From: a virus
Reading direction: 5' to 3' (one strand)
Virus genome (UHGV): UHGV-2152145
DNA: 10,830 bases
In this document: in pieces, positions 1,009-10,830 of the stretch
How the letters are laid out: each line of letters starts with the position of its first letter
Position numbering within the stretch: position 1 is the stretch's first letter
Notes under the pieces: generated by a model
Told to the model about the DNA's origin: nothing
Seen by the model: the letters and a program-made list of their open reading frames with translations, nothing else
Databases searched by the model: none
Made by a program: the position numbers and the translations under genes

Positions 1009-1503
1009 ATGAATAACAGCAGCAATACCACAAACCGTAATACGTCTTCACCCGTTGAGTCAGCCTGTCATGCGTTACTGGATTTTATTGCCCGGGAAGT
1101 CTTTGAGAATAAAGCATCGGAAGAGGATGTCAGGGAGCGTTGCAAAGTATTTACAGCGCTGCTTAACGAAGGATTTAAAGCCCTGCTTGATGAGTCAGGG
1201 CTGAATCTGTCGAATCTTCGTAAACAGTGTAAGGAACTGGAATCTCAGATAACCAGACTGGATTCTCAGTCCGACGCTATTTGTCGCAGAAGCGCTCAAA
1301 TTGAACGCTTCATTGGCCACCATTTACCTTTTTTTGATTTGAACAAAGTTTCTGGTACTGCCAGTCAGTCATGTGAACCAGCGCCTTCTCCGGCTCAGTC
1401 GGCTGTGTCCAGTAGTCAGCCCAGTAATCTGTCAGAGCAAGGGACATCTCTGCGGGGGTCATCTGCTCAACCGTTGCCGGGAGCCAGTGATGCTGATGAA
1501 TAA
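1009..1503 (+). CDS. Hypothetical protein, predicted coiled-coil core with Ser/Pro/Gln-rich low-complexity C-terminal tail
   Basis: ATG at 1009 is preceded by GAAGGA (995-1000) at 8-nt spacing; the ORF-track start at 910 has no RBS. The central region (LRKQCKELESQITRLDSQ) looks helical/coiled-coil. The last ~190 nt overlap the minus-strand ORF 1310..1783, so the 3' portion is uncertain. Confidence 0.5.
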   Translation: MNNSSNTTNRNTSSPVESACHALLDFIAREVFENKASEEDVRERCKVFTALLNEGFKALLDESGLNLSNLRKQCKELESQITRLDSQSDAICRRSAQIERFIGHHLPFFDLNKVSGTASQSCEPAPSPAQSAVSSSQPSNLSEQGTSLRGSSAQPLPGASDADE

Positions 1504-1783
1504 GAGCAAACTTAACGGCTTGTTGAATGCTGATACTGTTATCGTCCAGAAAAAACCAGCGACGGCTGTTAATCAGCCAGTGTCCGAGCCAGCAAAGTCG
1601 GTAAGCGAGCTTCTGGTCAGCCCCGGGAAAGATTTCAGTTCCCTGGTCAAAGAAGGTTTTACAACGTTCCACATCGTCGGTGCTCATGCCTCCGGCTTTC
1701 CAGTTTTCATAATATTTTGCCATGTTGCCATCCTCATCATGGTTGTTATCAATGCCGGACGGCAGTTGTTTTTCTGTATTCAT
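1310..1783 (-). CDS. Possible divergent minus-strand ORF (157 aa) initiating inside repeat copy 1; uncertain
   Basis: The minus-strand ATG (complement of 1781-1783) is preceded by AAGGAG at ~7-nt spacing. The first 11 codons (MNTEKQLPSGI) are identical to those of minus ORF 2669..3064 because they lie within the repeat. The product is Trp/Tyr-rich and protein-like, but it overlaps the 3' end of + CDS 1009..1503, and antisense ORFs of this size are common in this window. Confidence 0.3.
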   Translation of the reverse strand: MNTEKQLPSGIDNNHDEDGNMAKYYENWKAGGMSTDDVERCKTFFDQGTEIFPGADQKLAYRLCWLGHWLINSRRWFFLDDNSISIQQAVKFALIHQHHWLPATVEQMTPAEMSLALTDYWADYWTQPTEPEKALVHMTDWQYQKLCSNQKKVNGGQ

Positions 1784-2010: not shown

Positions 2011-2913
2011 ATGTCTTCCTCAGTGAAATATTCTCCGGTTCCGGCGGTGTTAACCCGCCCTGAATTGCTGGCTGAACTGAACCTGCTGATGACCCGGATT
2101 GCCAGTGGGTGTCGTGTGGGGGTTCCGGCGTCATGTCGTCCGGTCATTGCGGTGCACGGTGGTTATGTTTCATACAGTTCTCCACGCGCCGGACGTGTTT
2201 TTCAGGACGGTTCCCGCCCGGAGATAGTGATGGCCGTCAGTAACCGGGAACGGATGTGCGAATGGTTCAGTCAGGTCTGGCTTCCGCTGCATCTGGCTGC
2301 CCTTGAAGGCGATGAGAGTGCTTTTTTCAGTGCGGAGGTCAACATGGTGCGCCGCGAGCTGCAGCGCGTTCCGGGGAATTCAATGAACTGCATGTGCTGG
2401 GCAAGCCTTGCTGCACTGGCATTTGATGCTGAAGAGCGGGTGGAACGGCAGAAAGGCAATAATGAGAACATCGCAACATATGATGAGAGCATCGCAACAT
2501 ATGCATTCCGTGCTGCCTGTACTGTGAGTCTCTGTCTGAGCCGGAATGTTTCCGGAGGTATTCCGCGCTCATACCCTGAATGGAAAGCGATTTTATTTCC
2601 CCGTGATGGTGCTGACATTTTCCCCGACGGGTGGCTGGAAAATATGACCCGTCGGGCTGAACGTGTCTTTACGAGTGCGAAACGTCAGTGTGGAATGCTC
2701 TCAGCCAGTCAGGCAGCGCTTTTTTCTCAACAAACACGTCAGTGTGCCAGTGAGCAATGCTCCGGCCGTATTCAGGCCGGCAGTCATCATTCAGGGAGCC
2801 ACCCTGACGTTTCAGCTTATGAAGTACGCTGTGCACAAGAAATGTCGCTTTCACCGGTCCATTCGACCCGACAGTGTTCAGTTCAATCCACTGATTCTGC
2901 TGAAACGGAGTGA
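2011..2913 (+). CDS. Hypothetical protein (300 aa), no recognisable domain; flanked on both sides by the 206-bp repeat
   Basis: ATG 2011 is preceded by GGAGGTG (1999-2005) at 5-6 nt spacing, directly downstream of repeat copy 1. Contains an in-frame 21-bp tandem duplication (2464..2505) and a Cys/Ser/Gln-rich C-terminal ~80 aa that looks low-complexity. The 3' end overlaps minus ORF 2669..3064. Confidence 0.5.
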   Translation: MSSSVKYSPVPAVLTRPELLAELNLLMTRIASGCRVGVPASCRPVIAVHGGYVSYSSPRAGRVFQDGSRPEIVMAVSNRERMCEWFSQVWLPLHLAALEGDESAFFSAEVNMVRRELQRVPGNSMNCMCWASLAALAFDAEERVERQKGNNENIATYDESIATYAFRAACTVSLCLSRNVSGGIPRSYPEWKAILFPRDGADIFPDGWLENMTRRAERVFTSAKRQCGMLSASQAALFSQQTRQCASEQCSGRIQAGSHHSGSHPDVSAYEVRCAQEMSLSPVHSTRQCSVQSTDSAETE

Positions 2914-3064
2914 AAGGATGAGCCGATTCAATACAGTTCGGGGGGAAGGGGTTACAGAGCCCGTCTTTTTCCGTCATGACCTTTCCGTTACTCAGCAGCC
3001 AGAACTGCTGGGTGTATTTCACTTCAGATCCAATGCCGGACGGCAGTTGTTTTTCTGTATTCAT
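2669..3064 (-). CDS. Possible divergent minus-strand ORF (131 aa) initiating inside repeat copy 2; uncertain
   Basis: The minus-strand ATG at 3062-3064 is preceded by AAAGGA. It shares only the first 11 residues with ORF 1310..1783 and then diverges completely. It overlaps the 3' low-complexity tail of + CDS 2011..2913. Confidence 0.25.
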   Translation of the reverse strand: MNTEKQLPSGIGSEVKYTQQFWLLSNGKVMTEKDGLCNPFPPNCIESAHPFTPFQQNQWIELNTVGSNGPVKATFLVHSVLHKLKRQGGSLNDDCRPEYGRSIAHWHTDVFVEKKALPDWLRAFHTDVSHS

Positions 3065-3237
3065 AAAGTTTTTCCTTTAAATCAGATTGTTATGAATGAG
3101 CGAATGCTGTCCGTACCTTCAGACCGGGGGCGGCAAACTTACCGGTCTGAAAACGTACAGGCAGTTATGGGCATTTTATGCCCTGCAACTGTTCGTCCGG
3201 CACCCTTTTTCCTTTTTTCACATAGCCGGGTTTCCGG
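3032..3237. repeat. Copy 2 of the ~206-bp direct repeat, immediately upstream of dnaB
   Basis: Same element as 1751..1956. Contains GGGCATTTTATGCCC (3169..3183) and the perfect 9-bp inverted repeat TCAGACCGG-N14-CCGGTCTGA (3119..3150). The dnaB RBS GGGAGG and ATG 3261 follow about 20 bp after the repeat ends. Confidence 0.9.
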
Positions 3238-3260
3238 CAGTCAGAGAGGGAGGATACACC

Positions 3261-4649
3261 ATGGCTGAACGCTATATTCCGCGCTCCGTTGATGCTGAAC
3301 AGGCTGTGCTTGGCGGCCTGATGCTTGATAATGATCGCTGGGATGAAGTGGTGCTGATGCTCAGGAGGGAGGATTTTTCTCTGGCTGTGCACAGGGTGAT
3401 ATTCCGCTCTATGTCAGAGCTGGCAGTCAGCGGTCAGCCGTTCGACCTCATCACGCTGAGTGAGCATATTGAGAAAACGCACAATATTGAGGCACTCGGC
3501 GGCTTCGCTTACCTGGCTGAGCTCAGTAAGAATACACCTTCAGCAGCCAATATCATGGCTTATGTCCGTATTGTGGCGGAAAAGAGTATGCTGCGGCAGC
3601 TTCAGGAAACCGGTAATTCTCTGGTTGCTGATGTTGCATCGCCGGATGCCACTCCGCGCGCAGTTCTTGAATCCGCGGAACGGCGACTTTTTTCTCTTTC
3701 CCAGACAGGCATGCTGCATGAGCGCAGTGAAGTGAGCCTTTCCTCCGCAATGGAGCTGGCCCTGCGTCAGCTGGAAGAAGGACTGAGGGCGGGCGGGATG
3801 ACGGGCACCCCAACGGGGTTTGATGAACTGGATGAGATGACCTGTGGCCTGCAGCCCGGGGATCTTATCCTTCTGGCAGCACGTCCGTCGATGGGGAAAA
3901 CGGCCCTTGGGCTCACTCTGTGTCTTAATGCCCTGCGTGAGCGGACCGATGAAACGGTATTCCTGTTCAGCATAGAAATGTCCAGGGAGCAACTGATTCT
4001 GCGTACCCTGTCGATGCTGTCCCGGGTGGAGCTGACTCGTCTTCGCAGCAGCATGATGGACGATGAGGAGTGGGCGAGACTTACGGCAACAATGGGTGAG
4101 TTCATGCAGGAGGGGACATCTGTCGGTGAAGGTAACCGCCTGATCATTGATGACTCGTCATTTCAGACTCCGTCATCACTGCGCGCCAGTGCCCGTCGTT
4201 ATGTGCGTCTGTATGGCAGACCTTCCCTGATAATGGTCGATTATCTCCAGTTGATTCGTTCACCGGACCAGGAAAACCGCACTCAGGAGATTGCGGAAAT
4301 ATCCCGCGCCCTCAAGTCGCTGGGGAAAGAACTTGGATGCCCTGTGCTCGCACTGTCGCAGCTTAACCGACAGGTGGAACAGCGGGCAGATAAACGACCA
4401 AACAACGGTGACCTGCGTGATTCCGGGGCGCTGGAGCAGGATGCTGACCTCATTATGTTTATTTACCGTGACGAGGTTTACAACCCCGGCACTCTGGATA
4501 AGGGCGTGGCGGAAATCATTGTGAGCAAACAGCGACAGGGACCGACCGGTACGATACGGGTGAGCTTCGATGGTCGTTACACCCTGTTTTCACCGTTTGA
4601 ACGTGGCTGGAATTTTGACCGTTCCGGAGGCAATGCGTATGTCAATTAA
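3261..4649 (+). CDS. dnaB: DnaB-family replicative DNA helicase (463 aa)
   Basis: N-terminus MAERYIPRSVDAEQAVLGGLMLDN is a typical DnaB N-terminal domain start. Walker A ARPSMGKTALGL, Walker B-like LIMVDYLQL, and SQLNR plus DLRDSGALEQDADLIMFIYRDEVY match the RecA-like DnaB C-terminal domain. The start is set at ATG 3261 with GGGAGG at 3248-3253; the ORF-track start at 3096 lies inside the repeat and lacks an RBS. Confidence 0.9.
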   Translation: MAERYIPRSVDAEQAVLGGLMLDNDRWDEVVLMLRREDFSLAVHRVIFRSMSELAVSGQPFDLITLSEHIEKTHNIEALGGFAYLAELSKNTPSAANIMAYVRIVAEKSMLRQLQETGNSLVADVASPDATPRAVLESAERRLFSLSQTGMLHERSEVSLSSAMELALRQLEEGLRAGGMTGTPTGFDELDEMTCGLQPGDLILLAARPSMGKTALGLTLCLNALRERTDETVFLFSIEMSREQLILRTLSMLSRVELTRLRSSMMDDEEWARLTATMGEFMQEGTSVGEGNRLIIDDSSFQTPSSLRASARRYVRLYGRPSLIMVDYLQLIRSPDQENRTQEIAEISRALKSLGKELGCPVLALSQLNRQVEQRADKRPNNGDLRDSGALEQDADLIMFIYRDEVYNPGTLDKGVAEIIVSKQRQGPTGTIRVSFDGRYTLFSPFERGWNFDRSGGNAYVN

Positions 4650-6264
4650 GCGAAATCATTCCCTTGACCTGGGGGCCGCCATCATGCAACCGGGGCGCCA
4701 GGCCAGTAAGACCGGTAACGTGGTTGCCCTGGGGGAAACGCCCATGGTTCTGACGCTGGATCAGTTGCGCCCTAATCCTGATAACCCGAGAACCACGCGC
4801 AATCCCCGGTACGACGATATTAAAAGTTCAATTTTCTCCCGCGGACTGGATACGGTGCCAAAGGTCACCCGGATACCGGAGAGTGAGCCGGATATCTACA
4901 TCTTCAGCGATGGTGGTAACACTCGTTATCAGATCCTGAGAGAACTGTGGGAGGAGACCGGCGAGCAGCGTTTCTACCGTATTCATGTGCTTTTCAAACC
5001 GTGGCCGGGGCGGCTTCAGTGTGTCATTGGTCATCTGGCTGAGAATGAAGTCAGGGGCGAACTGACGTTTATTGAAAAGGCTCAGGGTATCCATAAAGCA
5101 CGGATGATTTATGAAGAGTCCCTGCAGCGGACTGTGACGATCAGAGAACTGGCATCATTACTGACAGATGAAGGCCTTCCGGTAAGCCACTCATCCGTCA
5201 GCAGGATGGAGCATGCGCTGAAATATCTGTATCCGTGGATCCCCGAACTACTGGAGTCAGGAATGGGGAGACCGCAGGTCAATTCTTTGTTATCTCTCCG
5301 TCAGGATGCGGAACGCATCTGGGGGCAGTTTGCAGTCGCGGCGGAAAACGATGTGGATTTTGATCGCGTGTTTGGTGAATGTTGCGGCAAATTCAACTCG
5401 CCGGAACTCTGGTCCATGGAAATGTTCAGGGACGAGCTGATCGGTGACCTGCTGAAGGCTCTGCCACATCCGGTACTGGATTACGATCGCTGGTTGCTGG
5501 AGCTGGATCCCCGGGAGCGTAATCGACGTCACCATTTTGGTGAACCCGAACCGGTACTCATGCCGGCGGGCAGCCCCCCGGAACCGGGGGCTCAGGTGGC
5601 GTCTGGCGGGATGACGGAAGCTGCTCAGGTCGTTGCCGCCACTCCCGCAGACCGTGAGAGCGTCATGAATACTGCGCAATCAGGGGCTGAGAAAGAGGAC
5701 CGCCCGGTCGCAGATAAACGCGAACGACGCAGAAAGGAAGTTCAACCGGATATGTATGGTGGCGAAGACTCATACAGCGGTGATTGCGGAGAGGATGCGA
5801 CCGGTGAGTCAACTGATATACCGATAATGCCGGAAGATAACGCCATGCAGGAGGGGGGAGAATTTCGCCTGGCGTCTGCATTCACTGGTGCTGAACAGGA
5901 TGATATCGAATCTCTGCAGAATGAGGCGTTTCACCTCGCATGGGAGCTGGCGTCACATACAGGCTGTGTCGATGAGATAGCGATGGACCGGGAAAGTGAG
6001 CTGTCTGCAGGATTTGGTGCGGCAGAGGCAAATTGCTCACCGGTCATGGCATTTCTTGTCAGACTGACCGGTGAGGAGGTTCTGCGGGTCAATCCGGTTT
6101 CCCTTGATGCACTGCTGATAGGCGGCAGTACTGAAGAAGACCTGCCGTTGCTTGATGATGAACATGCAGGAAAGTTGCTTCGCCTGCTGGGTGTGTTGCG
6201 TCGTCTGCGGGGGCTGCAGCGTATGGTGGAAGACGAGAGTGAGGAAGGGCGCGATGAATGCTGA
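4639..6264 (+). CDS. parB: ParB-like nuclease-domain protein with long acidic low-complexity C-terminal extension
   Basis: LDQLRPNPDNPR and GNTRYQ match the ParB/Srx N-terminal domain signature (xPNPxNPR box, GxxR). ATG 4639 has GGAGG at 4626-4630 with 8-nt spacing and overlaps the dnaB stop by 11 nt, consistent with translational coupling. The C-terminal ~230 aa are rich in E/D/P/G/A. Confidence 0.8.
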   Translation: MSIKRNHSLDLGAAIMQPGRQASKTGNVVALGETPMVLTLDQLRPNPDNPRTTRNPRYDDIKSSIFSRGLDTVPKVTRIPESEPDIYIFSDGGNTRYQILRELWEETGEQRFYRIHVLFKPWPGRLQCVIGHLAENEVRGELTFIEKAQGIHKARMIYEESLQRTVTIRELASLLTDEGLPVSHSSVSRMEHALKYLYPWIPELLESGMGRPQVNSLLSLRQDAERIWGQFAVAAENDVDFDRVFGECCGKFNSPELWSMEMFRDELIGDLLKALPHPVLDYDRWLLELDPRERNRRHHFGEPEPVLMPAGSPPEPGAQVASGGMTEAAQVVAATPADRESVMNTAQSGAEKEDRPVADKRERRRKEVQPDMYGGEDSYSGDCGEDATGESTDIPIMPEDNAMQEGGEFRLASAFTGAEQDDIESLQNEAFHLAWELASHTGCVDEIAMDRESELSAGFGAAEANCSPVMAFLVRLTGEEVLRVNPVSLDALLIGGSTEEDLPLLDDEHAGKLLRLLGVLRRLRGLQRMVEDESEEGRDEC

Positions 6265-6985
6265 TGCCGCACGTCAGGATCAACTGATTAAACGGATAAG
6301 AAAACTGCTGGCGCTGAGCCGGAATAACAGTAACCCCCATGAGGCAGGCCAGGCACTTTCCCGTGCTCAGGCGCTGATGCGCAAGCACGGTATCACTGAA
6401 CTGGATACTGATATTTCGGTGATAAAGACCTCGTCATCAAAGGGGGCCCCGTCAGAAGCGGAAAAAGTTCCGGTATGGATGGGGCGCCTTATGCATGTTG
6501 TTGCAGAGGCATTCGGATGCCATACATACCTGGACTGGCGTATCACAACCGGAAGGTACTGGCGGCGGGTTGTCATATTTTATGGCTTTGGGGAGCGCCC
6601 GGTTGTGGCGGCGTATGCCTTTGATGTTCTCTGCCGGCAGATGCAAAAGGCAACAAAGGCGTATCTTTCAACCCAGAGCAGGGCATTAAAATTGTCAACC
6701 CGCAGGGCAAGAGCAGCCATGTTTCGTGACGGCTGGGTTTATGGGGTGCGTGATGTGGTGGATGCATTCCCGCTCACGGAAGATGAGACGCGTGTAATGA
6801 AGACGTGGCTGAAGAGACAGCAATTTGAGGGAATGGCTGCCTTCCGGAATGTTAAGGACTGTAATGGTGGTGATCGTGCACGCTGGCAGGGATACAGCGA
6901 GGGTAAAAAGGCAACACTGCATCATGGTGTTGGTTCCCGGAATCTGAGACCTGAAAGCCTGATATCGGGCGGAGGTGAGGTATGA
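6254..6985 (+). CDS. DUF2786-like protein (conserved hypothetical of plasmids/phages/islands)
   Basis: N-terminus MNADAARQDQLIKRIRKLLALSRNNSNPHEAGQALSRAQALMRKHGITELD fits my recollection of the DUF2786 N-terminal helical motif (IxKIrKLLALaxsxNxxEAxxAL). Start 6254 follows GAGGAAGGG and overlaps the parB stop by 11 nt. Confidence 0.65.
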   Translation: MNADAARQDQLIKRIRKLLALSRNNSNPHEAGQALSRAQALMRKHGITELDTDISVIKTSSSKGAPSEAEKVPVWMGRLMHVVAEAFGCHTYLDWRITTGRYWRRVVIFYGFGERPVVAAYAFDVLCRQMQKATKAYLSTQSRALKLSTRRARAAMFRDGWVYGVRDVVDAFPLTEDETRVMKTWLKRQQFEGMAAFRNVKDCNGGDRARWQGYSEGKKATLHHGVGSRNLRPESLISGGGEV

Positions 6986-7560
6986 GTAACAACTTGTCAC
7001 AGGCCACCAACGGGCTGTTGATGCAACTGGTGATGGATCTCAAGAGTGGCTATCTGCGGCGATGTGAAGCACTGGGGCTTTCCCGGGAAGAAATGCAGAT
7101 GCTGCAGGGGCTGAGCATTGAAGAAATTCACTATCTGTCAAATTCAGAAGTGTCGGTGCTGCGGCTGGATATTAACCACAACAATCTTGTGCGCATGTTG
7201 CAGCAGGCGCGGACTGAACAGAAACGTCTGCAGCGAATCGATCGCGCTCTGGCGCTGGGGGGCTCTATCGAACTCATGGCGTTTTATTTTGGTCTTTCCA
7301 GCGTGGATGTGGCTGCGCGGCGTCGTATCTCCGGTATTGATGTTCGTCCCGGAAGGGGGATCACCCTGAGTGACGATGAGAATTCTGAACTCTGGCGGTT
7401 GTGGCAGAAAGCCGGGATCAATGATGTGGAGAGTGTGGACGGGCTGGATGTCATGATGCTTTGTGCTGAACAGATGAACATTCCACTGACGGCCATCTGG
7501 CATGCCGTCAGAGGGTGGCATACAACCGGAAATCCGGATCAGGTAAGGAGCGCGTCATGA
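6982..7560 (+). CDS. Hypothetical protein (192 aa), part of the coupled operon
   Basis: ATG 6982 overlaps the upstream stop (ATGA) and is preceded by GGAGGTGAGG. Composition is protein-like with no motif I can name with confidence. Confidence 0.6.
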   Translation: MSNNLSQATNGLLMQLVMDLKSGYLRRCEALGLSREEMQMLQGLSIEEIHYLSNSEVSVLRLDINHNNLVRMLQQARTEQKRLQRIDRALALGGSIELMAFYFGLSSVDVAARRRISGIDVRPGRGITLSDDENSELWRLWQKAGINDVESVDGLDVMMLCAEQMNIPLTAIWHAVRGWHTTGNPDQVRSAS

Positions 7561-7805
7561 AGATGACAGAACTGGTTCCCGGAGTGCTGACAAGTCCGGG
7601 CGTCCCTCCCGCCAGTCAGCGTAAGGCGGTTGAACTGGTCAATCGCTTCCGTCGTGGAGAGCGGAATTATCATGAACTGAAGGAAAGGGGATTTGGTTAT
7701 TTCAAGATTGATGTTGGTCCTGACTGGCGGTTACTGAGCCGGAATAAAGGGCTGACCTGGGCCCTGTTGAGTCATGAACGATACAACAACATGAGACTGA
7801 AGTGA
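7557..7805 (+). CDS. Small hypothetical protein (82 aa); weak resemblance to HigB/RelE-superfamily toxin C-terminal core
   Basis: ATG 7557 overlaps the upstream stop (ATGA) and follows AAGGAG (7545-7550). The C-terminal half GFGYFKIDVGPDWRLLSRNKGLTWALLSHERYNN resembles the HigB-like pattern (Gxxxxxi.V...WRl....followed by an aromatic/His near the C-terminus). This is a by-eye pattern match only. Confidence 0.5.
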   Translation: MKMTELVPGVLTSPGVPPASQRKAVELVNRFRRGERNYHELKERGFGYFKIDVGPDWRLLSRNKGLTWALLSHERYNNMRLK

Positions 7806-7814
7806 GGTGGAAAG

Positions 7815-8072
7815 ATGAGTAATGCAGCAAGACTCCAGCTGGGTTTTTCTCCGTTTTCAAAAACTATCGTGCTGGCAAAAATGCGTAATCTTGACGACGG
7901 AACCAGTCTTCGTGTCGGTAATGATCCCGGCCGCGATGTAACCAATGAGGCGGCTCAGCTTGTCTGGCATCTGGTCATGGCAGAAGGTGGTGAAATTATG
8001 TGGGAAATGGACGATGGCTCCCGCATGGTGCTGAAGGCTGAAAGTCAGGAGGCAACCAGTGAGCAAGATTAA
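7815..8072 (+). CDS. Small acidic hypothetical protein (85 aa)
   Basis: ATG 7815 is preceded by GAGGTGG (7803-7809). No HTH or other recognisable motif. The 3' end overlaps the next gene start by 14 nt. Confidence 0.5.
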   Translation: MSNAARLQLGFSPFSKTIVLAKMRNLDDGTSLRVGNDPGRDVTNEAAQLVWHLVMAEGGEIMWEMDDGSRMVLKAESQEATSEQD

Positions 8073-8727
8073 CTACCAGGCACTGCGTGAGGCGGCAGAG
8101 CAGGCAATGCATGACGACTGGGGATTTGACACGGATCTTTTCCATGAGCTGGTAACACCATCGATTGTGCAGGCACTGCTGGATGAACGGGAAGCCAAAA
8201 GCAAACTCCTGGCCGAACTGGACGCTAATTTATCCGAACTGGAGGCTGTTTTATCGGCGATGGGCGAAGAGCTCCAGAAAGCGACTGAGTCAATTGAGCG
8301 GGCTGATGCGGCTGCTACGTTGGCACACGAGACGTTTTCGGCGCTGGCGGCGGAGAATGCGATACTGAAGACAGCACTTCCTCAACCATTCGGACCTGAA
8401 ATGATGAAGGCTCTTGATGCGTATGAGAAGCACCAGGATGAAGTACCAGAGGCAGGAATGCTCAATGCATTTTTCATCTTACGCGACAGCATCTGTGTTG
8501 AAACCCCAGCCACCGATGCTTTCCTGGCTGAAGTACGGGCGCAGGGGGGGGATGCTGCTATAGAAGCTGCAAAAAATCTGGTGGCTCAGGAATATGAGTA
8601 TAAGGATTTCAAAGCGGCGCAGAGTGATTGCTGTATGTTTCCTGGTTCAGACTTGGTAGGGAAGGTTGAAATGACCGAGTGGTTAGTTGACTTTGCCGCA
8701 GAGCTTCGCAAAGGAGGCAACCAGTGA
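8059..8727 (+). CDS. Hypothetical coiled-coil protein (222 aa); shares its RBS and first ~12 codons with the next gene
   Basis: GTG 8059 is preceded by AGGAGG (8047-8052). The N-terminus MSKINYQALREAAEQA is near-identical to the start of 8724..9458; from memory this resembles ead/Ea22-like prophage proteins. The central region is helical/coiled-coil in character. Confidence 0.6.
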   Translation: MSKINYQALREAAEQAMHDDWGFDTDLFHELVTPSIVQALLDEREAKSKLLAELDANLSELEAVLSAMGEELQKATESIERADAAATLAHETFSALAAENAILKTALPQPFGPEMMKALDAYEKHQDEVPEAGMLNAFFILRDSICVETPATDAFLAEVRAQGGDAAIEAAKNLVAQEYEYKDFKAAQSDCCMFPGSDLVGKVEMTEWLVDFAAELRKGGNQ

Positions 8728-9458
8728 ACAAGATTGACTATCAGGCACTGCGTAAGGCAGCACAAAACTATCAGTCGACGCTGGCGTGGTATCAGTCCAT
8801 CCCGGACAGCCCAAATGCTGAACGGGATTGTGATGCGGCTCTGGCTGCGTTTAAGCATCACATCCGTCATCGGGAAGTGGATATTATCTCCGGGCTGTTG
8901 GATGAGCTGGACGAAAAACAGCAATACATTAAATCCCGCGACCAGGAGAATGAGGATATTGCTCTTACGGTTGGGAAGCTGAGAGTTGAGCTTGAGGAAG
9001 TAAAACAACACGCTGAAGAATTATCCGAAACCAACGCTGTTCGTAACCAATGGCGGCCAGATATTTGCCCAATAACCGGACGTGCATTTTTCATGTGGAT
9101 TGAGCATCCGACATTGGGAAATGTGCCGACGTATGGTGGCCCATTAGACAGTTACACCATTCCAACAAAGGACGGTGACGGTGAGTTTTCATGTGAGCGT
9201 TACGATCATGATTTCGGCGGTTGGGTAGAAAGCGAATGTCCTGGGTTATATCTGATTGATGATAAAGAACAATGCAGAGTCTACGAACTGGAGGAACGAG
9301 TTAAGGAACTGGATGCTCGGGAAATATCGCTCCCGGAACGTAGCAGTATGCTTCATCGAACAGATTTTAACGAGGCTTACCACACGGTAATGGCATACAA
9401 AGTTTCTGAAGTCATCGCTGCAATCCGCGTCGCTGGCATTCGCATCAAAGGAGAGTGA
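8724..9458 (+). CDS. Hypothetical protein (244 aa), mosaic: head shared with 8059..8727, tail shared with 10391..10606
   Basis: GTG 8724 is preceded by AAGGAGG (8711-8717). N-terminus MNKIDYQALRKAA; C-terminus ...AAIRVAGIRIKGE matches the C-terminus ...CTAAGIRIKGEQVK of 10391..10606. Overlaps the upstream stop by 4 nt. Confidence 0.6.
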   Translation: MNKIDYQALRKAAQNYQSTLAWYQSIPDSPNAERDCDAALAAFKHHIRHREVDIISGLLDELDEKQQYIKSRDQENEDIALTVGKLRVELEEVKQHAEELSETNAVRNQWRPDICPITGRAFFMWIEHPTLGNVPTYGGPLDSYTIPTKDGDGEFSCERYDHDFGGWVESECPGLYLIDDKEQCRVYELEERVKELDAREISLPERSSMLHRTDFNEAYHTVMAYKVSEVIAAIRVAGIRIKGE

Positions 9459-9459
9459 T

Positions 9460-9975
9460 ATGGCGTTAACACACCGCGAACTCTGTCAGATTGCGTACAA
9501 GTTCCTTAAGCGCAACGGGTTCAAGGTTTGCTTTCATGACCGCTTTATAGCTGTAACCAGCACTGGAGAACAGCCAGATGCTATGGGATTCAGAAATTCA
9601 GCATCATGCCTGATAGAGGTGAAGTGTTCTCGTTCTGATTTGTTGGCAGATAGAAAAAAGCGTTTCCGTAAAAATCCCTCTCTTGGCATGGGCGACTGGC
9701 GATTCTTTATTAGTGAGCCGGGAATTATTTCAGTTGAGGATTTACCTCCTGGCTGGGGATTACTTCACGTTGTTAACGGAAGAGTTCGGAAAGTACATGG
9801 ATGGCCCAGGGGTAATTGCTGTTGGGGTAATCCTGACGATAAGCCATTTACCGGGAATAAGCAGGTTGAATGCGATTACATGTTATCTGCATTAAGGCGG
9901 ATGGAGTTGAGAGGGCACCTTAATGAAATATATGACGGTGTAATTGTTAATAAGAAAGAAGGAAACGCGGCATGA
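9460..9975 (+). CDS. Candidate PD-(D/E)xK-fold nuclease (171 aa); visibly more AT-rich than its neighbours
   Basis: Motif arrangement GEQPDAMGF...(about 10 aa)...CLIEVKCS fits the PD-(D/E)xK core (PD, then hydrophobic strand ending E-x-K), with an upstream acidic residue in HRELCQ. ATG 9460 follows AAGGAG. By eye the composition is AT-richer than the flanking core genes. Confidence 0.55.
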   Translation: MALTHRELCQIAYKFLKRNGFKVCFHDRFIAVTSTGEQPDAMGFRNSASCLIEVKCSRSDLLADRKKRFRKNPSLGMGDWRFFISEPGIISVEDLPPGWGLLHVVNGRVRKVHGWPRGNCCWGNPDDKPFTGNKQVECDYMLSALRRMELRGHLNEIYDGVIVNKKEGNAA

Positions 9976-10394
9976 TCACTATTACCAAAGGACGACTGCT
10001 GACAATCAGGCAGTGGCGCGAAACATACGGACCGGGTAGCAACGTTGTACTGCCAGCAGAAGAAGCGGAAGAACTGGCGCGGATTGCCCTGGCGTCGCTG
10101 GAAGCCGAGCCGGTTGGTGAGTTTTATGAATACAAACCGGGTGACTGGTATCAGCGTTCGGTCGGGGATAAAGCGCCAAAGTGGACACCACTCTACGCTG
10201 TGCCACCAGTGCTTGTGGCACCTGAAGGACTGGTTAAGGCTGTGCGCTTTTATGAACAGGTTAAGCGTGAAAATCCGCCAGTCGAAACCGGAGCATGGAA
10301 AGACGCTGTTGACTGGGTATTACAGGAAGCATGTCAGGCTGTTCATTGGTGCCGACAGATATCAGACCTTCAGGAACAGGAGAATCATTCATGA
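9972..10394 (+). CDS. Hypothetical protein (140 aa)
   Basis: ATG 9972 overlaps the upstream stop (ATGA) and is preceded by GAAGGAAA. No recognisable motif. Confidence 0.55.
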   Translation: MITITKGRLLTIRQWRETYGPGSNVVLPAEEAEELARIALASLEAEPVGEFYEYKPGDWYQRSVGDKAPKWTPLYAVPPVLVAPEGLVKAVRFYEQVKRENPPVETGAWKDAVDWVLQEACQAVHWCRQISDLQEQENHS

Positions 10395-10606
10395 GAAAAA
10401 TCAGTGGAATGTTGAATCTGGAGAAGGCCAGGATGCAGTTGCGTGTTTTGTTATCTGGACCTGTTCCTGCAATCACTCCGATGGCGCATGCCGTGGCAAT
10501 AAAAGTTGTGCTTGATGCTCTGGATGCTAGTGAGCGGAGGGTGGCTGAACTGGAACAGGTCTGTACTGCCGCGGGGATTCGTATCAAAGGGGAACAAGTG
10601 AAATGA
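10391..10606 (+). CDS. Small hypothetical protein (71 aa) with C-terminal AGIRIKGE tail shared with 8724..9458
   Basis: ATG 10391 overlaps the upstream stop (ATGA) and follows AGGAG. The ORF-track start at 10331 lies inside the upstream gene with no RBS. The C-terminal ~15 aa and their nucleotides resemble the 3' end of 8724..9458. Confidence 0.5.
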   Translation: MRKISGMLNLEKARMQLRVLLSGPVPAITPMAHAVAIKVVLDALDASERRVAELEQVCTAAGIRIKGEQVK

Positions 10607-10830
10607 AACTGAAAATGCAGACAATTTCGGGTCCTGTGATTATCGACAGTAATGAGGTGACACAGTTTTACCCGGACCATGAAAGTGGAGGGGAACTCAC
10701 CGCTGTTGAATACTTTACTGACGAGGGAAGATGCACCACCCGGGTACGCCATTCCTTTTATCAGGTTGCTGAGGCACTTGCCAGTGCATGGCATGTGGAT
10801 GATGCATCAAAAAGGAATCGCCGTGGATAA
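10603..10830 (+). CDS. Small hypothetical protein (75 aa)
   Basis: ATG 10603 overlaps the upstream stop (ATGA) and is preceded by AAGGGGAA. Stop TAA falls at the window end (10828-10830). Confidence 0.5.
   Translation: MKLKMQTISGPVIIDSNEVTQFYPDHESGGELTAVEYFTDEGRCTTRVRHSFYQVAEALASAWHVDDASKRNRRG

Follow-up and report, generated by a model that had tools for sequence, protein, structure and literature searches.

Comparison of a 10,830-nucleotide stretch of DNA (the window) with related loci indicates that its block at 8047-10830 is, with good confidence, an exo-xis-type lambdoid accessory gene array that sits in a slot of an integrative conjugative element (ICE) and has been diversified by recombination or slippage at its gene junctions. 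Two Ead/Ea22-like genes in tandem make up the array together with four small ORFs, and all of it is read as a section of a long series of genes that overlap and would be coupled in translation. The head, a 5′ junction of Ea22-family genes made up of a Shine-Dalgarno sequence, a GTG placed over the upstream stop, and 12-13 codons, would be portable, as would the tail, a 3′ junction of the form ...GIRIKGE, stop, one base, ATG, in which the KGE codons AAA GGA GAG would serve as the Shine-Dalgarno sequence of whatever gene comes next. Because coding and translation-initiation roles would be combined in them, these junctions would hardly change, even synonymously, and would for that reason remain as nucleotide-identity islands shared by genes that are otherwise unrelated. 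On comparison of loci, homology-dependent recombination, or slippage, acts at these islands and at a few conserved internal joints, where it deletes, duplicates and swaps the intervening modules and leaves downstream translation intact. This is no new kind of system, as Ea22 mosaicism and linker-mediated exchange are already established. It does, however, show cleanly, at the level of sequence, how a mosaic accessory region is put together, with the same junction-bounded modules circulating among phages, phage-plasmids and a conjugative element, and it offers a simple, testable account of the Ea22 "+GE" motif, which is unexplained in the literature.

A link of the two large genes to the Ea22 family had been suggested in an earlier, sequence-only reading of the window, and it was borne out by profile search. 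Both ead1 (8059..8727, + strand, 222 aa) and ead2 (8724..9458, + strand, 244 aa) match PF13935 (Ead_Ea22; cut-off score 27 bits), with scores of 45.1 bits (1.9e-11) and 65.1 bits (1.3e-17), respectively, and PGAP labels their homologues ead/Ea22-like. The N-terminal pattern of lambda Ea22, M/V-S-x-I-N/D-x-Q-A-L-R-E-A-A-E, is present; the first ~45 residues of ead1 are those of the lambda protein (91% nucleotide identity to lambda ea22 over 8058-8193), and most of ead2 is matched at 94% by phage JEP4. Lambda Ea22 itself starts with VSEINSQALREAAEQAMHDDWGFD and ends with SDAGIRIKGE, and on alignment its N- and C-termini are what we call head and tail. In ead2 the head is followed by a variable N-terminal module, a conserved, putative coiled coil, the C-terminal domain and finally the AGIRIKGE tail, so that the protein ends in +GE; ead1 lacks this motif and ends in ELRKGGNQ, a second common tail type (tail type 2). 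Both genes share with the lambda Ea22/P22 Ead family the PF13935 match and the same head, and ead2 also shares with lambda Ea22 a putative coiled-coil segment and the AGIRIKGE tail. The mosaicism of Ea22, its terminal +GE motif and its three-part build of short N-terminus, coiled coil and variable C-terminal domain are all published (PMC7093339, PMC10834534), and the same build probably applies here. Unlike in lambda and P22, the genes lie in an ICE operon, 3′ of parB/DUF2857/ParE-like/DUF7446 and not in the phage pL operon, and they form two tandem copies, the first ending in KGGNQ instead of +GE. Their C-terminal domains are, as far as compared, unlike that of lambda and the published V1-V3 variants.

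A single phenotype has been published for the family: in lambda and Stx phages, Ea22 acts pro-lysogenically. A search of PDB sequences returned no match for ead2 and only noise for the neighboring 171-aa ORF, NCBIfam had no match for the block proteins and Rfam had none, while PHROGs gave only families annotated "unknown function", several of them per protein over partial ranges. The sole PADLOC match to defence models was a marginal coiled-coil match to DruG (E = 0.0015, 15 bits). The AlphaFold2 model of ead2, built with 45 homologues, shows a helix at 30-101, but its mean pLDDT of only 46 and pTM of 0.29 make it too poor for a fold search.

Head 1 (8047-8097) and head 2 (8712-8762), both on the + strand and 51 nt long, are identical at 46 positions (90%), whereas the best 51-mer match in shuffled sequence was 30/51; the near-identical starts of about 50 bp over the ribosome-binding site and first codons that the sequence-only reading had noticed are therefore above chance. 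Each head spans the 12 nt 5′ of the start (AGGAGGCAACCA), a GTG start overlapping the upstream stop, and 13 codons, which encode MSKINYQALREAA in head 1 and MNKIDYQALRKAA in head 2. Head 1 contains the Shine-Dalgarno sequence AGGAGG and aligns with heads of other loci and with lambda ea22, while the first 16 nt of head 2 double as the final codons and stop of ead1 (GGNQ*). The 12 nt 5′ of the start are also conserved, even though they lie inside two different upstream genes and in different frames; at head 1 the gene concerned encodes a DUF7446 protein, and its final 14 nt overlap ead1 and run through the head in another frame. The two heads are perfectly identical over 16 nt at most, and alongside this block the junction sequence contains a 12-nt core, CAGGCACTGCGT. 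Past the heads, nucleotide identity drops abruptly from 90% to nothing alignable, and the ead1 and ead2 proteins are ~25% identical, in the coiled-coil stretch only.

The head is found well beyond the window. In IMG/VR we counted at least 102 unique head-bearing proteins of 20-315 aa with at least 33 full-length architectures, in loci that were picked for carrying the head, so that head conservation among them is by construction, and on contigs that come mostly from related enterobacterial prophages, so that "DNA-unique" ORFs are not independent samples. Head codons in loci selected by their tail were checked with a relaxed motif. Among the matches listed, the head 2-type ead-ead junction was the commonest.

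Tail 1 (9431-9454) and tail 2 (10570-10593), also on the + strand, are identical at 20 of 24 positions. All four differences are synonymous and AGIRIKGE is in frame in both genes, which agrees with the recurring 3′ end described in the sequence-only reading. The head pair and the tail pair are the only two 24-mer pairs with at least 20/24 identity in 7500-10830; the best 24-mer match over 30 shuffles was 19/24, and none of 5000 protein shuffles produced a shared 8-residue peptide. Tail 1 matches the 3′ end of lambda ea22 at 97% identity, and with its junction (9431..9462) it reads GCT GGC ATT CGC ATC AAA GGA GAG TGA T ATG, the stop of ead2 coming directly after the motif. Tail 2 is a diverged copy (GGG ATT CGT ATC AAA GGG GAA) with the same amino acids, followed in 10391..10606 by three further codons (QVK).

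Among the IMG/VR matches listed, the codons for GIRIKGE were identical in 45/45 tails bar one ATT for ATC. All 52 of the KGE tails listed had AAA GGA GAG TGA, and 50 of these were followed by N+ATG, with at least 21 different N-termini downstream. The fixed codons together with the adjoining start argue that the tail carries the Shine-Dalgarno sequence of the next gene, in line with the earlier proposal that a ribosome-binding site is embedded there. The published "+GE motif of unknown significance" would be accounted for if the K-G-E codons are such a site. The Shine-Dalgarno sequence alone does not account for the GGC ATT CGC ATC portion of the tail, and the fact that tail 2 keeps its amino acids despite four synonymous changes points to a degree of constraint on the protein, or to no more than retention of the Shine-Dalgarno sequence. 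Unrelated proteins bear the tail (the XF1762 family, a 71/100-aa family and others, among the matches listed), and on XF1762 proteins it falls outside the family model. Also among these matches are 27-aa stubs consisting of head and tail only, some of which are frameshifted and look like decaying scars. Conserved boundaries around unrelated interiors, as first suspected in the window, thus recur in many other elements.

The block occupies a hypervariable slot of an SPI-7/PAPI-1-type ICE of E. coli. The surrounding backbone encodes ParA, DnaB, ParB, DUF2786, DUF2857, ParE-like and DUF7446 proteins, and near-identical loci continue downstream with an STY4528-family Rep, a PFL_4669-family ICE protein and topoisomerase III. 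The genes are found in this backbone, not under pL in a lambdoid prophage, where an exo-xis region would be placed. The DUF7446 gene (7815..8072, + strand; PF24233, 57.1 bits) forms the conserved left flank of the slot, and ICE diversity was sampled from contigs encoding its product. Across genomes, at least 5-6 different gene sets come after one and the same DUF7446 protein, and the left flanks are at least 99.2% identical among ICE types W, A and D. The slot extends from ~8098 to ~10220, and to ~10410 in one variant. A scan of genome contigs for the DUF7446 protein gave 2 loci only, one in an Aeromonas ICE and the other on a MAG contig that is probably contaminated. When homologous loci were aligned, heads and tails were kept and interiors swapped or deleted, the outcome that the cassette interpretation had predicted. 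The variable cargo includes an intact 171-aa lambdoid accessory ORF (9460..9975, + strand; phrog_9263, 7.7e-122), which ICE variants W, A and B carry and C and D lack.

Two parts of the original proposal had to be abandoned. The segment 8724..10606 had been viewed as cargo enclosed between a shared head and tail, but ead2 by itself already has both a head and a tail and makes a complete Ea22-type gene. The 71-aa ORF at the end of that segment (10391..10606, + strand; C-terminus ...AAGIRIKGEQVK) is not exchangeable cargo: together with the 75-aa ORF (10603..10830, + strand; phrog_5994, 1.7e-26) it forms the right flank, which is conserved in every ICE variant examined, and no breakpoint was seen at its tail in these variants. 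In near-identical loci the replication gene of the STY4528 family comes next after the 75-aa ORF.

E. coli S19-651 and 12 other genomes match the window at 4800-8097 and 8712-10830. What these matches have in common is exactly a single 51-nt head; the genomes lack the 665 bp that separate the heads in the window, and with them ead1. The crossover, where head-1 context gives way to head-2 sequence, maps within the 16-nt identical block AGGAGGCAACCAGTGA at 8712-8727 (equivalent to 8047-8062). The window and S19-651 thus differ by an exact head-to-head event, which we read as a deletion, although its direction could be that of an insertion. The minimal efficient pairing segment has been given as 31-34 bp for RecA and 23-27 bp for Red-beta (PMC3945230). 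Because the 16-nt identity is shorter than either, RecA-independent slippage, or an ancestral event between heads that were more similar, may be responsible.

The same boundaries stand out in the IMG/VR contigs when the ends of high-identity tracts (at least 200 nt at 90% identity or more) are counted. Among the matches listed, positions -40..+20 around the start collect at least 336 left ends and positions -40..0 at the stop at least 259, compared with about 0-10 in neighboring 20-nt bins. Many breakpoints also separate domain modules inside genes, near 8500, 8893, 8997, 10115 and 10218, so heads and tails are preferred joints but not exclusive ones, and the exchange units are often sub-genic. 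The original interpretation is thus borne out in part. Breakpoints at 8891-8895 and 8995-8998 flank the coiled-coil segment QQYIKSRDQENEDIALTVGKLRVELEE (8891..8998, + strand), which is common to lambda ea22 (82%), JEP4 and the L010/L011 loci, and which forms an internal recombination joint. The lambda segment QQYIKxRDQENEDIALTVGKLRVELE is present in ead2 as well; the similarity of ead1 there is compositional only. In the 45-homologue alignment the head is identical and the coiled coil and C-terminal domain are near-invariant, with at least 7 unrelated N-terminal modules placed between head and coiled coil. Taken at the sequence level, the comparison shows that modules between the islands and internal joints have been deleted, duplicated and swapped by recombination or slippage.

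Conserved junctions could instead reflect protein-level constraint only, with an N-terminal helix and a C-terminal peptide needed for oligomerisation or partner binding, no role for the junction DNA, and mosaicism arising from random illegitimate recombination followed by selection (the Hendrix model). We consider this unlikely. It would fit the position of the head within the PF13935 model, the survival of AGIRIKGE in tail 2, and the finding that the activity of full-length lambda Ea22 requires more than the C-terminal domain (PMC10834534). Against it, synonymous sites are frozen over dozens of otherwise unrelated ORFs among the matches listed, conservation reaches 12 nt 5′ of the start into different genes and other frames, and the tail is found on unrelated families and outside the XF1762 model. 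The junction moreover persists as non-coding AAAGGAGATTGATATGG in ICE variant C, and the S19-651-type variant is an exact head-to-head deletion with its crossover in common sequence. A second explanation, that ead1 and ead2 are old paralogues produced by local tandem duplication and that the head is merely their slowest-evolving part, is very improbable. The two genes are adjacent, in the same orientation and of the same Pfam family, with weak coiled-coil similarity, but their identity falls abruptly after the head, and each has much closer relatives elsewhere (lambda for the first ~135 nt of ead1, JEP4 for most of ead2), which indicates that their interiors came from different sources. Least probable of all is a dedicated integron- or shufflon-like cassette system with heads and tails as sites of a specialised recombinase: variable genes flanked by short conserved sequences and 27-aa stubs resembling empty sites would suit it, but no integrase, invertase or other recombinase domain was detected in the ORFs scanned in the 10.8-kb window, no inverted repeats were found at heads or tails, many breakpoints lie elsewhere within genes, the frameshifted stubs look like scars, and these junctions are shared by lambdoid phages, phage-plasmids and ICEs that have unrelated recombinases. 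Nothing suggests dedicated cassette machinery.

Recombination or slippage at shared junctions has several precedents. In the modular view of Botstein and Susskind, lambdoid phages evolve via conserved "linker" sequences, and Rad52-like recombinases carry out relaxed homologous recombination (De Paepe et al. 2014, PMC3945230). As with such linkers, short conserved sequences mark module boundaries here, high-identity tracts end at them, and one variant pair is explained by exchange within common sequence. Unlike those linkers, the junctions overlap coding sequence and translation-initiation regions and share at most 16 nt of identity, and over the 10.8 kb seen no Red/Erf recombinase was recognised in the ICE that carries them. 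In the PeSL cassettes of T4-type phages, repeated junctions ending in a Shine-Dalgarno sequence and start flank non-essential ORFs in hyperplastic regions, and recombination between neighboring PeSLs deletes or inserts the intervening ORF (Arbiol et al. 2010, PMC2839356). The repeated Shine-Dalgarno/start junctions and the removal or addition of an ORF between them are alike in the window, but a PeSL is an intergenic promoter and stem-loop terminator, whereas the junctions here are translational and lie within coding sequence. No PeSL-type sigma-70 promoter plus terminator was found in them; promoter-like sites were absent from the + strand of 6000-10830, and terminator-like sites inside the block were no more frequent than expected from shuffles. 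Integrons (attC/IntI) likewise carry promoterless variable genes in the same orientation between conserved boundaries, but the 10.8 kb seen has no integrase and no attC-like imperfect palindrome, and breakpoints also fall within genes.

A broader and rather doubtful possibility is that Ea22-type arrays form a plug-and-play diversification locus common to lambdoid phages, phage-plasmids and ICEs. Dual-use junctions, at once coding and translation-initiating, would be universal recombination handles, and any effector domain or small gene inserted between them would be expressed at once. The +GE would be the Shine-Dalgarno sequence of the next gene and not a protein motif, while the 27-aa stubs would be empty sites that keep ribosomes moving along the operon. 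An arms race with host or rival-element functions would drive the diversification, and module swapping would resemble that of orphan modules in polymorphic toxin loci. The CDI and Rhs loci indeed combine a constant N-terminal part with swappable C-terminal domains, but here no toxin, immunity or secretion domain and no demarcating pre-toxin motif was detected, and the proteins are presumed cytoplasmic. A further likeness to CDI and Rhs loci is the presence of terminal-module fragments downstream, namely the tailed 71-aa ORF and the 3′ half of a mosaic 140-aa ORF (9972..10394, + strand). The first part of the latter, 9972-10118, is like DUF551-type 5′ ends, and 10217-10394 is a C-terminal module that elsewhere terminates Ea22-like proteins, for example a 236-aa protein of 2015C-3121, and that is placed directly after the head in a 104-aa protein of TUM1886.

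The window contains a tightly packed series of plus-strand genes in which each start overlaps the preceding stop or lies close to it. Genes for a DUF2786/DUF7168 protein (6251..6985), a DUF2857 protein (6982..7560), a ParE-like protein (7557..7805) and a DUF7446 protein (7815..8072) are followed by two tandem Ead/Ea22-like genes, ead1 (8059..8727, 222 aa) and ead2 (8724..9458, 244 aa), and by ORFs of 171 (9460..9975), 140 (9972..10394), 71 (10391..10606) and 75 aa (10603..10830). No promoter-like site was detected on the plus strand of 6000-10830 and terminator-like sites there were not in excess, which fits one long coupled operon. The ParE-like toxin-domain gene (PF24732), directly 3' of the DUF2857 gene, had no recognisable antitoxin family next to it.

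A repeat search returned a 51-nt direct repeat, the head, at 8047-8097 and 8712-8762 (46/51 identical), comprising 12 nt 5' of the start, the GTG start and 13 codons. It also returned a 24-nt repeat, the tail, which encodes AGIRIKGE at 9431-9454 in ead2 and at 10570-10593 in the 71-aa ORF (20/24 identical); the four differing positions are all synonymous, and the reading frame of the second copy continues for three further codons (QVK). These were the only 24-mer pairs in 7500-10830 with at least 20/24 matches. Both repeats noticed in the sequence-only reading are therefore real, since shuffles never reached the observed matches: the maximum for 24-mers was 19/24 (30 shuffles), the best 51-mer match was 30/51, and a shared 8-residue peptide appeared in none of 5000 protein shuffles. 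Past the head, ead1 and ead2 are only ~25% identical, over a coiled-coil stretch.

The suspected kinship with Ea22 was borne out by Pfam PF13935 (Ead_Ea22, cut-off 27 bits), which scored 45.1 bits for ead1 and 65.1 for ead2. In translation from NC_001416, lambda Ea22 has the sequence VSEINSQALREAAEQAMHDDWGFDADLFHELVTPSIV ... QQYIKRRDQENEDIALTVGKLRVELE ... SDAGIRIKGE; the first ~135 nt of ead1 are 91% identical to lambda ea22, the ead2 coiled-coil segment 82% and its last 31 nt 97%. Head and tail are therefore the two ends of the Ea22 archetype, and by these matches lambda ea22 looks like a recombinant of pieces split in the window between ead1 and ead2. In PHROG, the matches of each block protein were partial-length hits to several families, none of known function; PADLOC, NCBIfam, a PDB sequence search and Rfam gave nothing informative for the block, and an AlphaFold2 model of ead2 (mean pLDDT 46) was too poor for use. 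Published work has already described Ea22 as three-part and mosaic, with two or three variants in a genome (PMC10834534, PMC8614690, PMC7093339). No description of Ea22-like genes in an integrative conjugative element (ICE) was found in the literature, though RefSeq annotates such genes.

The window is such an element, of the SPI-7/PAPI-1 type, and not a phage. It carries genes for ParA, DnaB, ParB, DUF2786, DUF2857, ParE-like and DUF7446 proteins; near-identical loci have genes for an STY4528-family island replication protein, a PFL_4669-family ICE protein and topoisomerase III after the block, and 2059-10830 is 100% identical to a contig of GCA_907175675.1. Of 5426 complete E. coli genomes, 2811 carry parts of 7800-10830 (on chromosomes and plasmids), and none has at least 80% of it in one piece. 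The closest ICEs, that of E. coli S19-651 and 12 others, match 4800-8097 and 8712-10830, with the two matches overlapping on one 51-nt head, and are missing precisely 665 bp, the stretch between the heads of the window. The S19-651 alignment joins the upstream context of head 1 to the downstream sequence of head 2, switching inside a 16-nt identical block, AGGAGGCAACCAGTGA. This difference may reflect deletion or insertion, in either direction.

In other ICEs that encode this same DUF7446 protein, different genes follow it (numbers are lengths in aa). The window (type W) has ead1, ead2, 171, 140, 71 and 75; type A has ead2, 171, 140, 71 and 75; type B has ead(202), ead(104), an XF1762-family gene, 171 and, further on, 71 and 73; type C has a truncated head-bearing ORF, an HNH gene and others; and type D has ead(202), ead(236), 71 and 75. 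Alignment of related elements, which the sequence-only reading had proposed, thus found slot contents swapped or missing, with a single head kept in S19-651. Types W, A and D share at least 99.2% identity in their left flanks, and one W-type backbone resembles that of an A type more closely than that of the window, so the slot changes faster than the backbone. The 71-aa gene, counted earlier among the candidates for exchangeable cargo, is present in every variant, as is the 75-aa gene, and both therefore belong to the right flank.

Three observations concern the slot and its annotation. A related ICE on an Aeromonas finlandensis contig (L007, 6270-8977) encodes a DUF7446 homologue (68% identity), after which, in place of Ea22-like genes, come a 598-aa protein that we take, from a motif recognised by eye, to be N6-adenine methyltransferase-like, and a 304-aa protein that is presumably, on the same basis, cytosine-C5 methyltransferase-like; the same slot thus carries different accessory cargo in another genus. 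A 3.2-kb contig labelled 'MAG: Actinomycetes bacterium' (JAFAFN010000164.1), with a DUF7446 protein 86% identical to that of the window and ead1-like pieces, is most likely an enterobacterial contaminant or mis-binned. In many genomes RefSeq/PGAP calls the first 179 nt of the 171-aa ORF (window 9460-9975) a 'frameshifted hypothetical protein' (3996-4174, 5177-5355 and 5513-5691 in comparison loci L001, L010 and L011) and gives the 140-aa ORF no annotation. In the window, as in 6/6 homologous ICE loci translated, all 171 codons form one open, intact frame, so the pseudogene call looks like an annotation artefact.

Comparison of the loci shows exchange and deletion at head and tail junctions. 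Homology ends against eleven loci recur, in window coordinates, at 8047/8097, 8499-8501, 8743-8767, 8891-8895, 8995-8998, 9431-9464, 9972-9988, 10112-10118 and 10216-10221, some at gene junctions and some within genes. For tracts of at least 200 nt at 90% identity or more among the 104 regions listed, 336 left ends fell at -40..+20 of a start and 259 at -40..0 of a stop, and 236 right ends at 0..+60 of a start and 181 at -20..+20 of a stop; neighbouring 20-nt bins held about 0-10. Mosaicism extends into the 140-aa ORF, in which the first ~147 nt match DUF551-type genes at their 5' ends and the last ~175 nt are a module that comes directly after a head in a 104-aa protein of strain TUM1886, there ending in IGIKGE, and that also forms the end of a 236-aa Ea22-like protein in strain 2015C-3121. 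The idea of modular genes recombining at shared ends was thus right in kind, with homologous ICEs differing in slot content and tract ends piling up at junctions, but the cassette limits had been misplaced and the units exchanged are sub-genic.

IMG/VR was scanned with one exact pattern for the head and one for the tail, yielding at least 120 matches each from related, not independent, prophages. Head-bearing ORFs comprised at least 102 unique proteins of 20-315 aa in at least 33 full-length architectures, all joined by local similarity among the matches listed, where a GIRIKGE-like tail closes ~60% of the unique proteins. When 45 close ead2 homologues were aligned, the head was identical and the coiled coil, C-terminal domain and tail were near-invariant, and at least seven unrelated N-terminal modules occupied the stretch between head and coiled coil. 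Other proteins that end in the tail are not Ea22-like; they include the XF1762 family, whose model stops 27 residues short of the protein end and so leaves the tail outside, a 71/100-aa family and several others. Some 27-aa ORFs consist of head and tail alone, a number of them frameshifted. This minimal ORF, MSEISYQASITAGIRIKGE..., was seen in at least 29 copies and 18 or more distinct sequences (IMG/VR loci L132, around 2870-2990, L140, L137 and others), some with a 1-nt deletion; the gene 5' of it ends in ...FYQGNFQEAVL and a stop, and the ATG of the 3' gene follows the tail's Shine-Dalgarno site. Such ORFs look like scars left where Ea22 genes were lost, through which translation of the neighbouring genes is still linked.

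Among the matches listed, in ORFs selected by head only, 45/45 GIRIKGE tails read GGC ATT CGC ATC AAA GGA GAG, bar one ATT for ATC. All 52 KGE-type ends listed read AAA GGA GAG TGA, and in 50 of them one base and an ATG follow, the genes that start there having 21 different N-termini between them. The string AAAGGAGAG is a Shine-Dalgarno sequence, placed at the usual spacing from that ATG, and the same string (AAAGGAGATTGATATGG) is kept as non-coding sequence 5' of the next gene in variant C. The other common end, ...RKGGNQ and a stop (CGC AAA GGA GGC AAC CAG TGA; 8707-8727 in the window), is the upstream half of the following ead gene's head, in which the QALR codons CAG GCA CTG CGT are nearly invariant. 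We infer that heads and tails are translation-initiation regions within coding sequence. This double use would keep them constant and so make them islands of homology. It would also offer a simple explanation of the terminal '+GE' motif of Ea22, whose significance was called unknown by Dydecka et al. (PMC7093339). At the lambda tail junction, 3' of ea22 (1040-1075 of the lambda locus, L004), the sequence reads AAAGGAGAGTGAGATCGG, and other phages have ...TGAGATGA... there, as the start of a downstream gene; the gene that the ea22 tail once served seems to have been lost from lambda.

Dedicated recombination machinery is absent from the locus: a domain scan of the window ORFs found no integrase and a repeat search at heads and tails no attC-like repeats, so the locus does not resemble an integron. 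The two heads of the window are perfectly identical over 16 nt at most, which is shorter than the minimal pairing segments of RecA (31-34 bp) and Red-beta (23-27 bp; De Paepe et al., PMC3945230). Exchange and deletion could have come about by slippage between direct repeats lying close together, by recombination in an ancestor whose heads were more similar, or by a relaxed phage recombinase acting while lambdoid prophages resided in the same cell. Exchange at these junctions resembles Botstein's modular model, in which it proceeds through conserved linkers. For the PeSL cassettes of T4-type phages, experiments have shown that repeated regulatory junctions recombine with one another (PMC2839356); unlike those, the window's junctions are translational, without promoters and terminators.

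Elsewhere in the window, a 222-nt direct repeat (1750-1971 and 3031-3252, 90% identity) lies 5' of the plus-strand ORF at 2011 and of dnaB and has no Rfam match. Each copy adjoins a minus-strand ORF starting MNTEKQLPSGI (1310..1783; 2669..3064) and contains a hairpin-like core, GGCATTTTATGCC; the pair looks like a duplicated divergent regulatory region.
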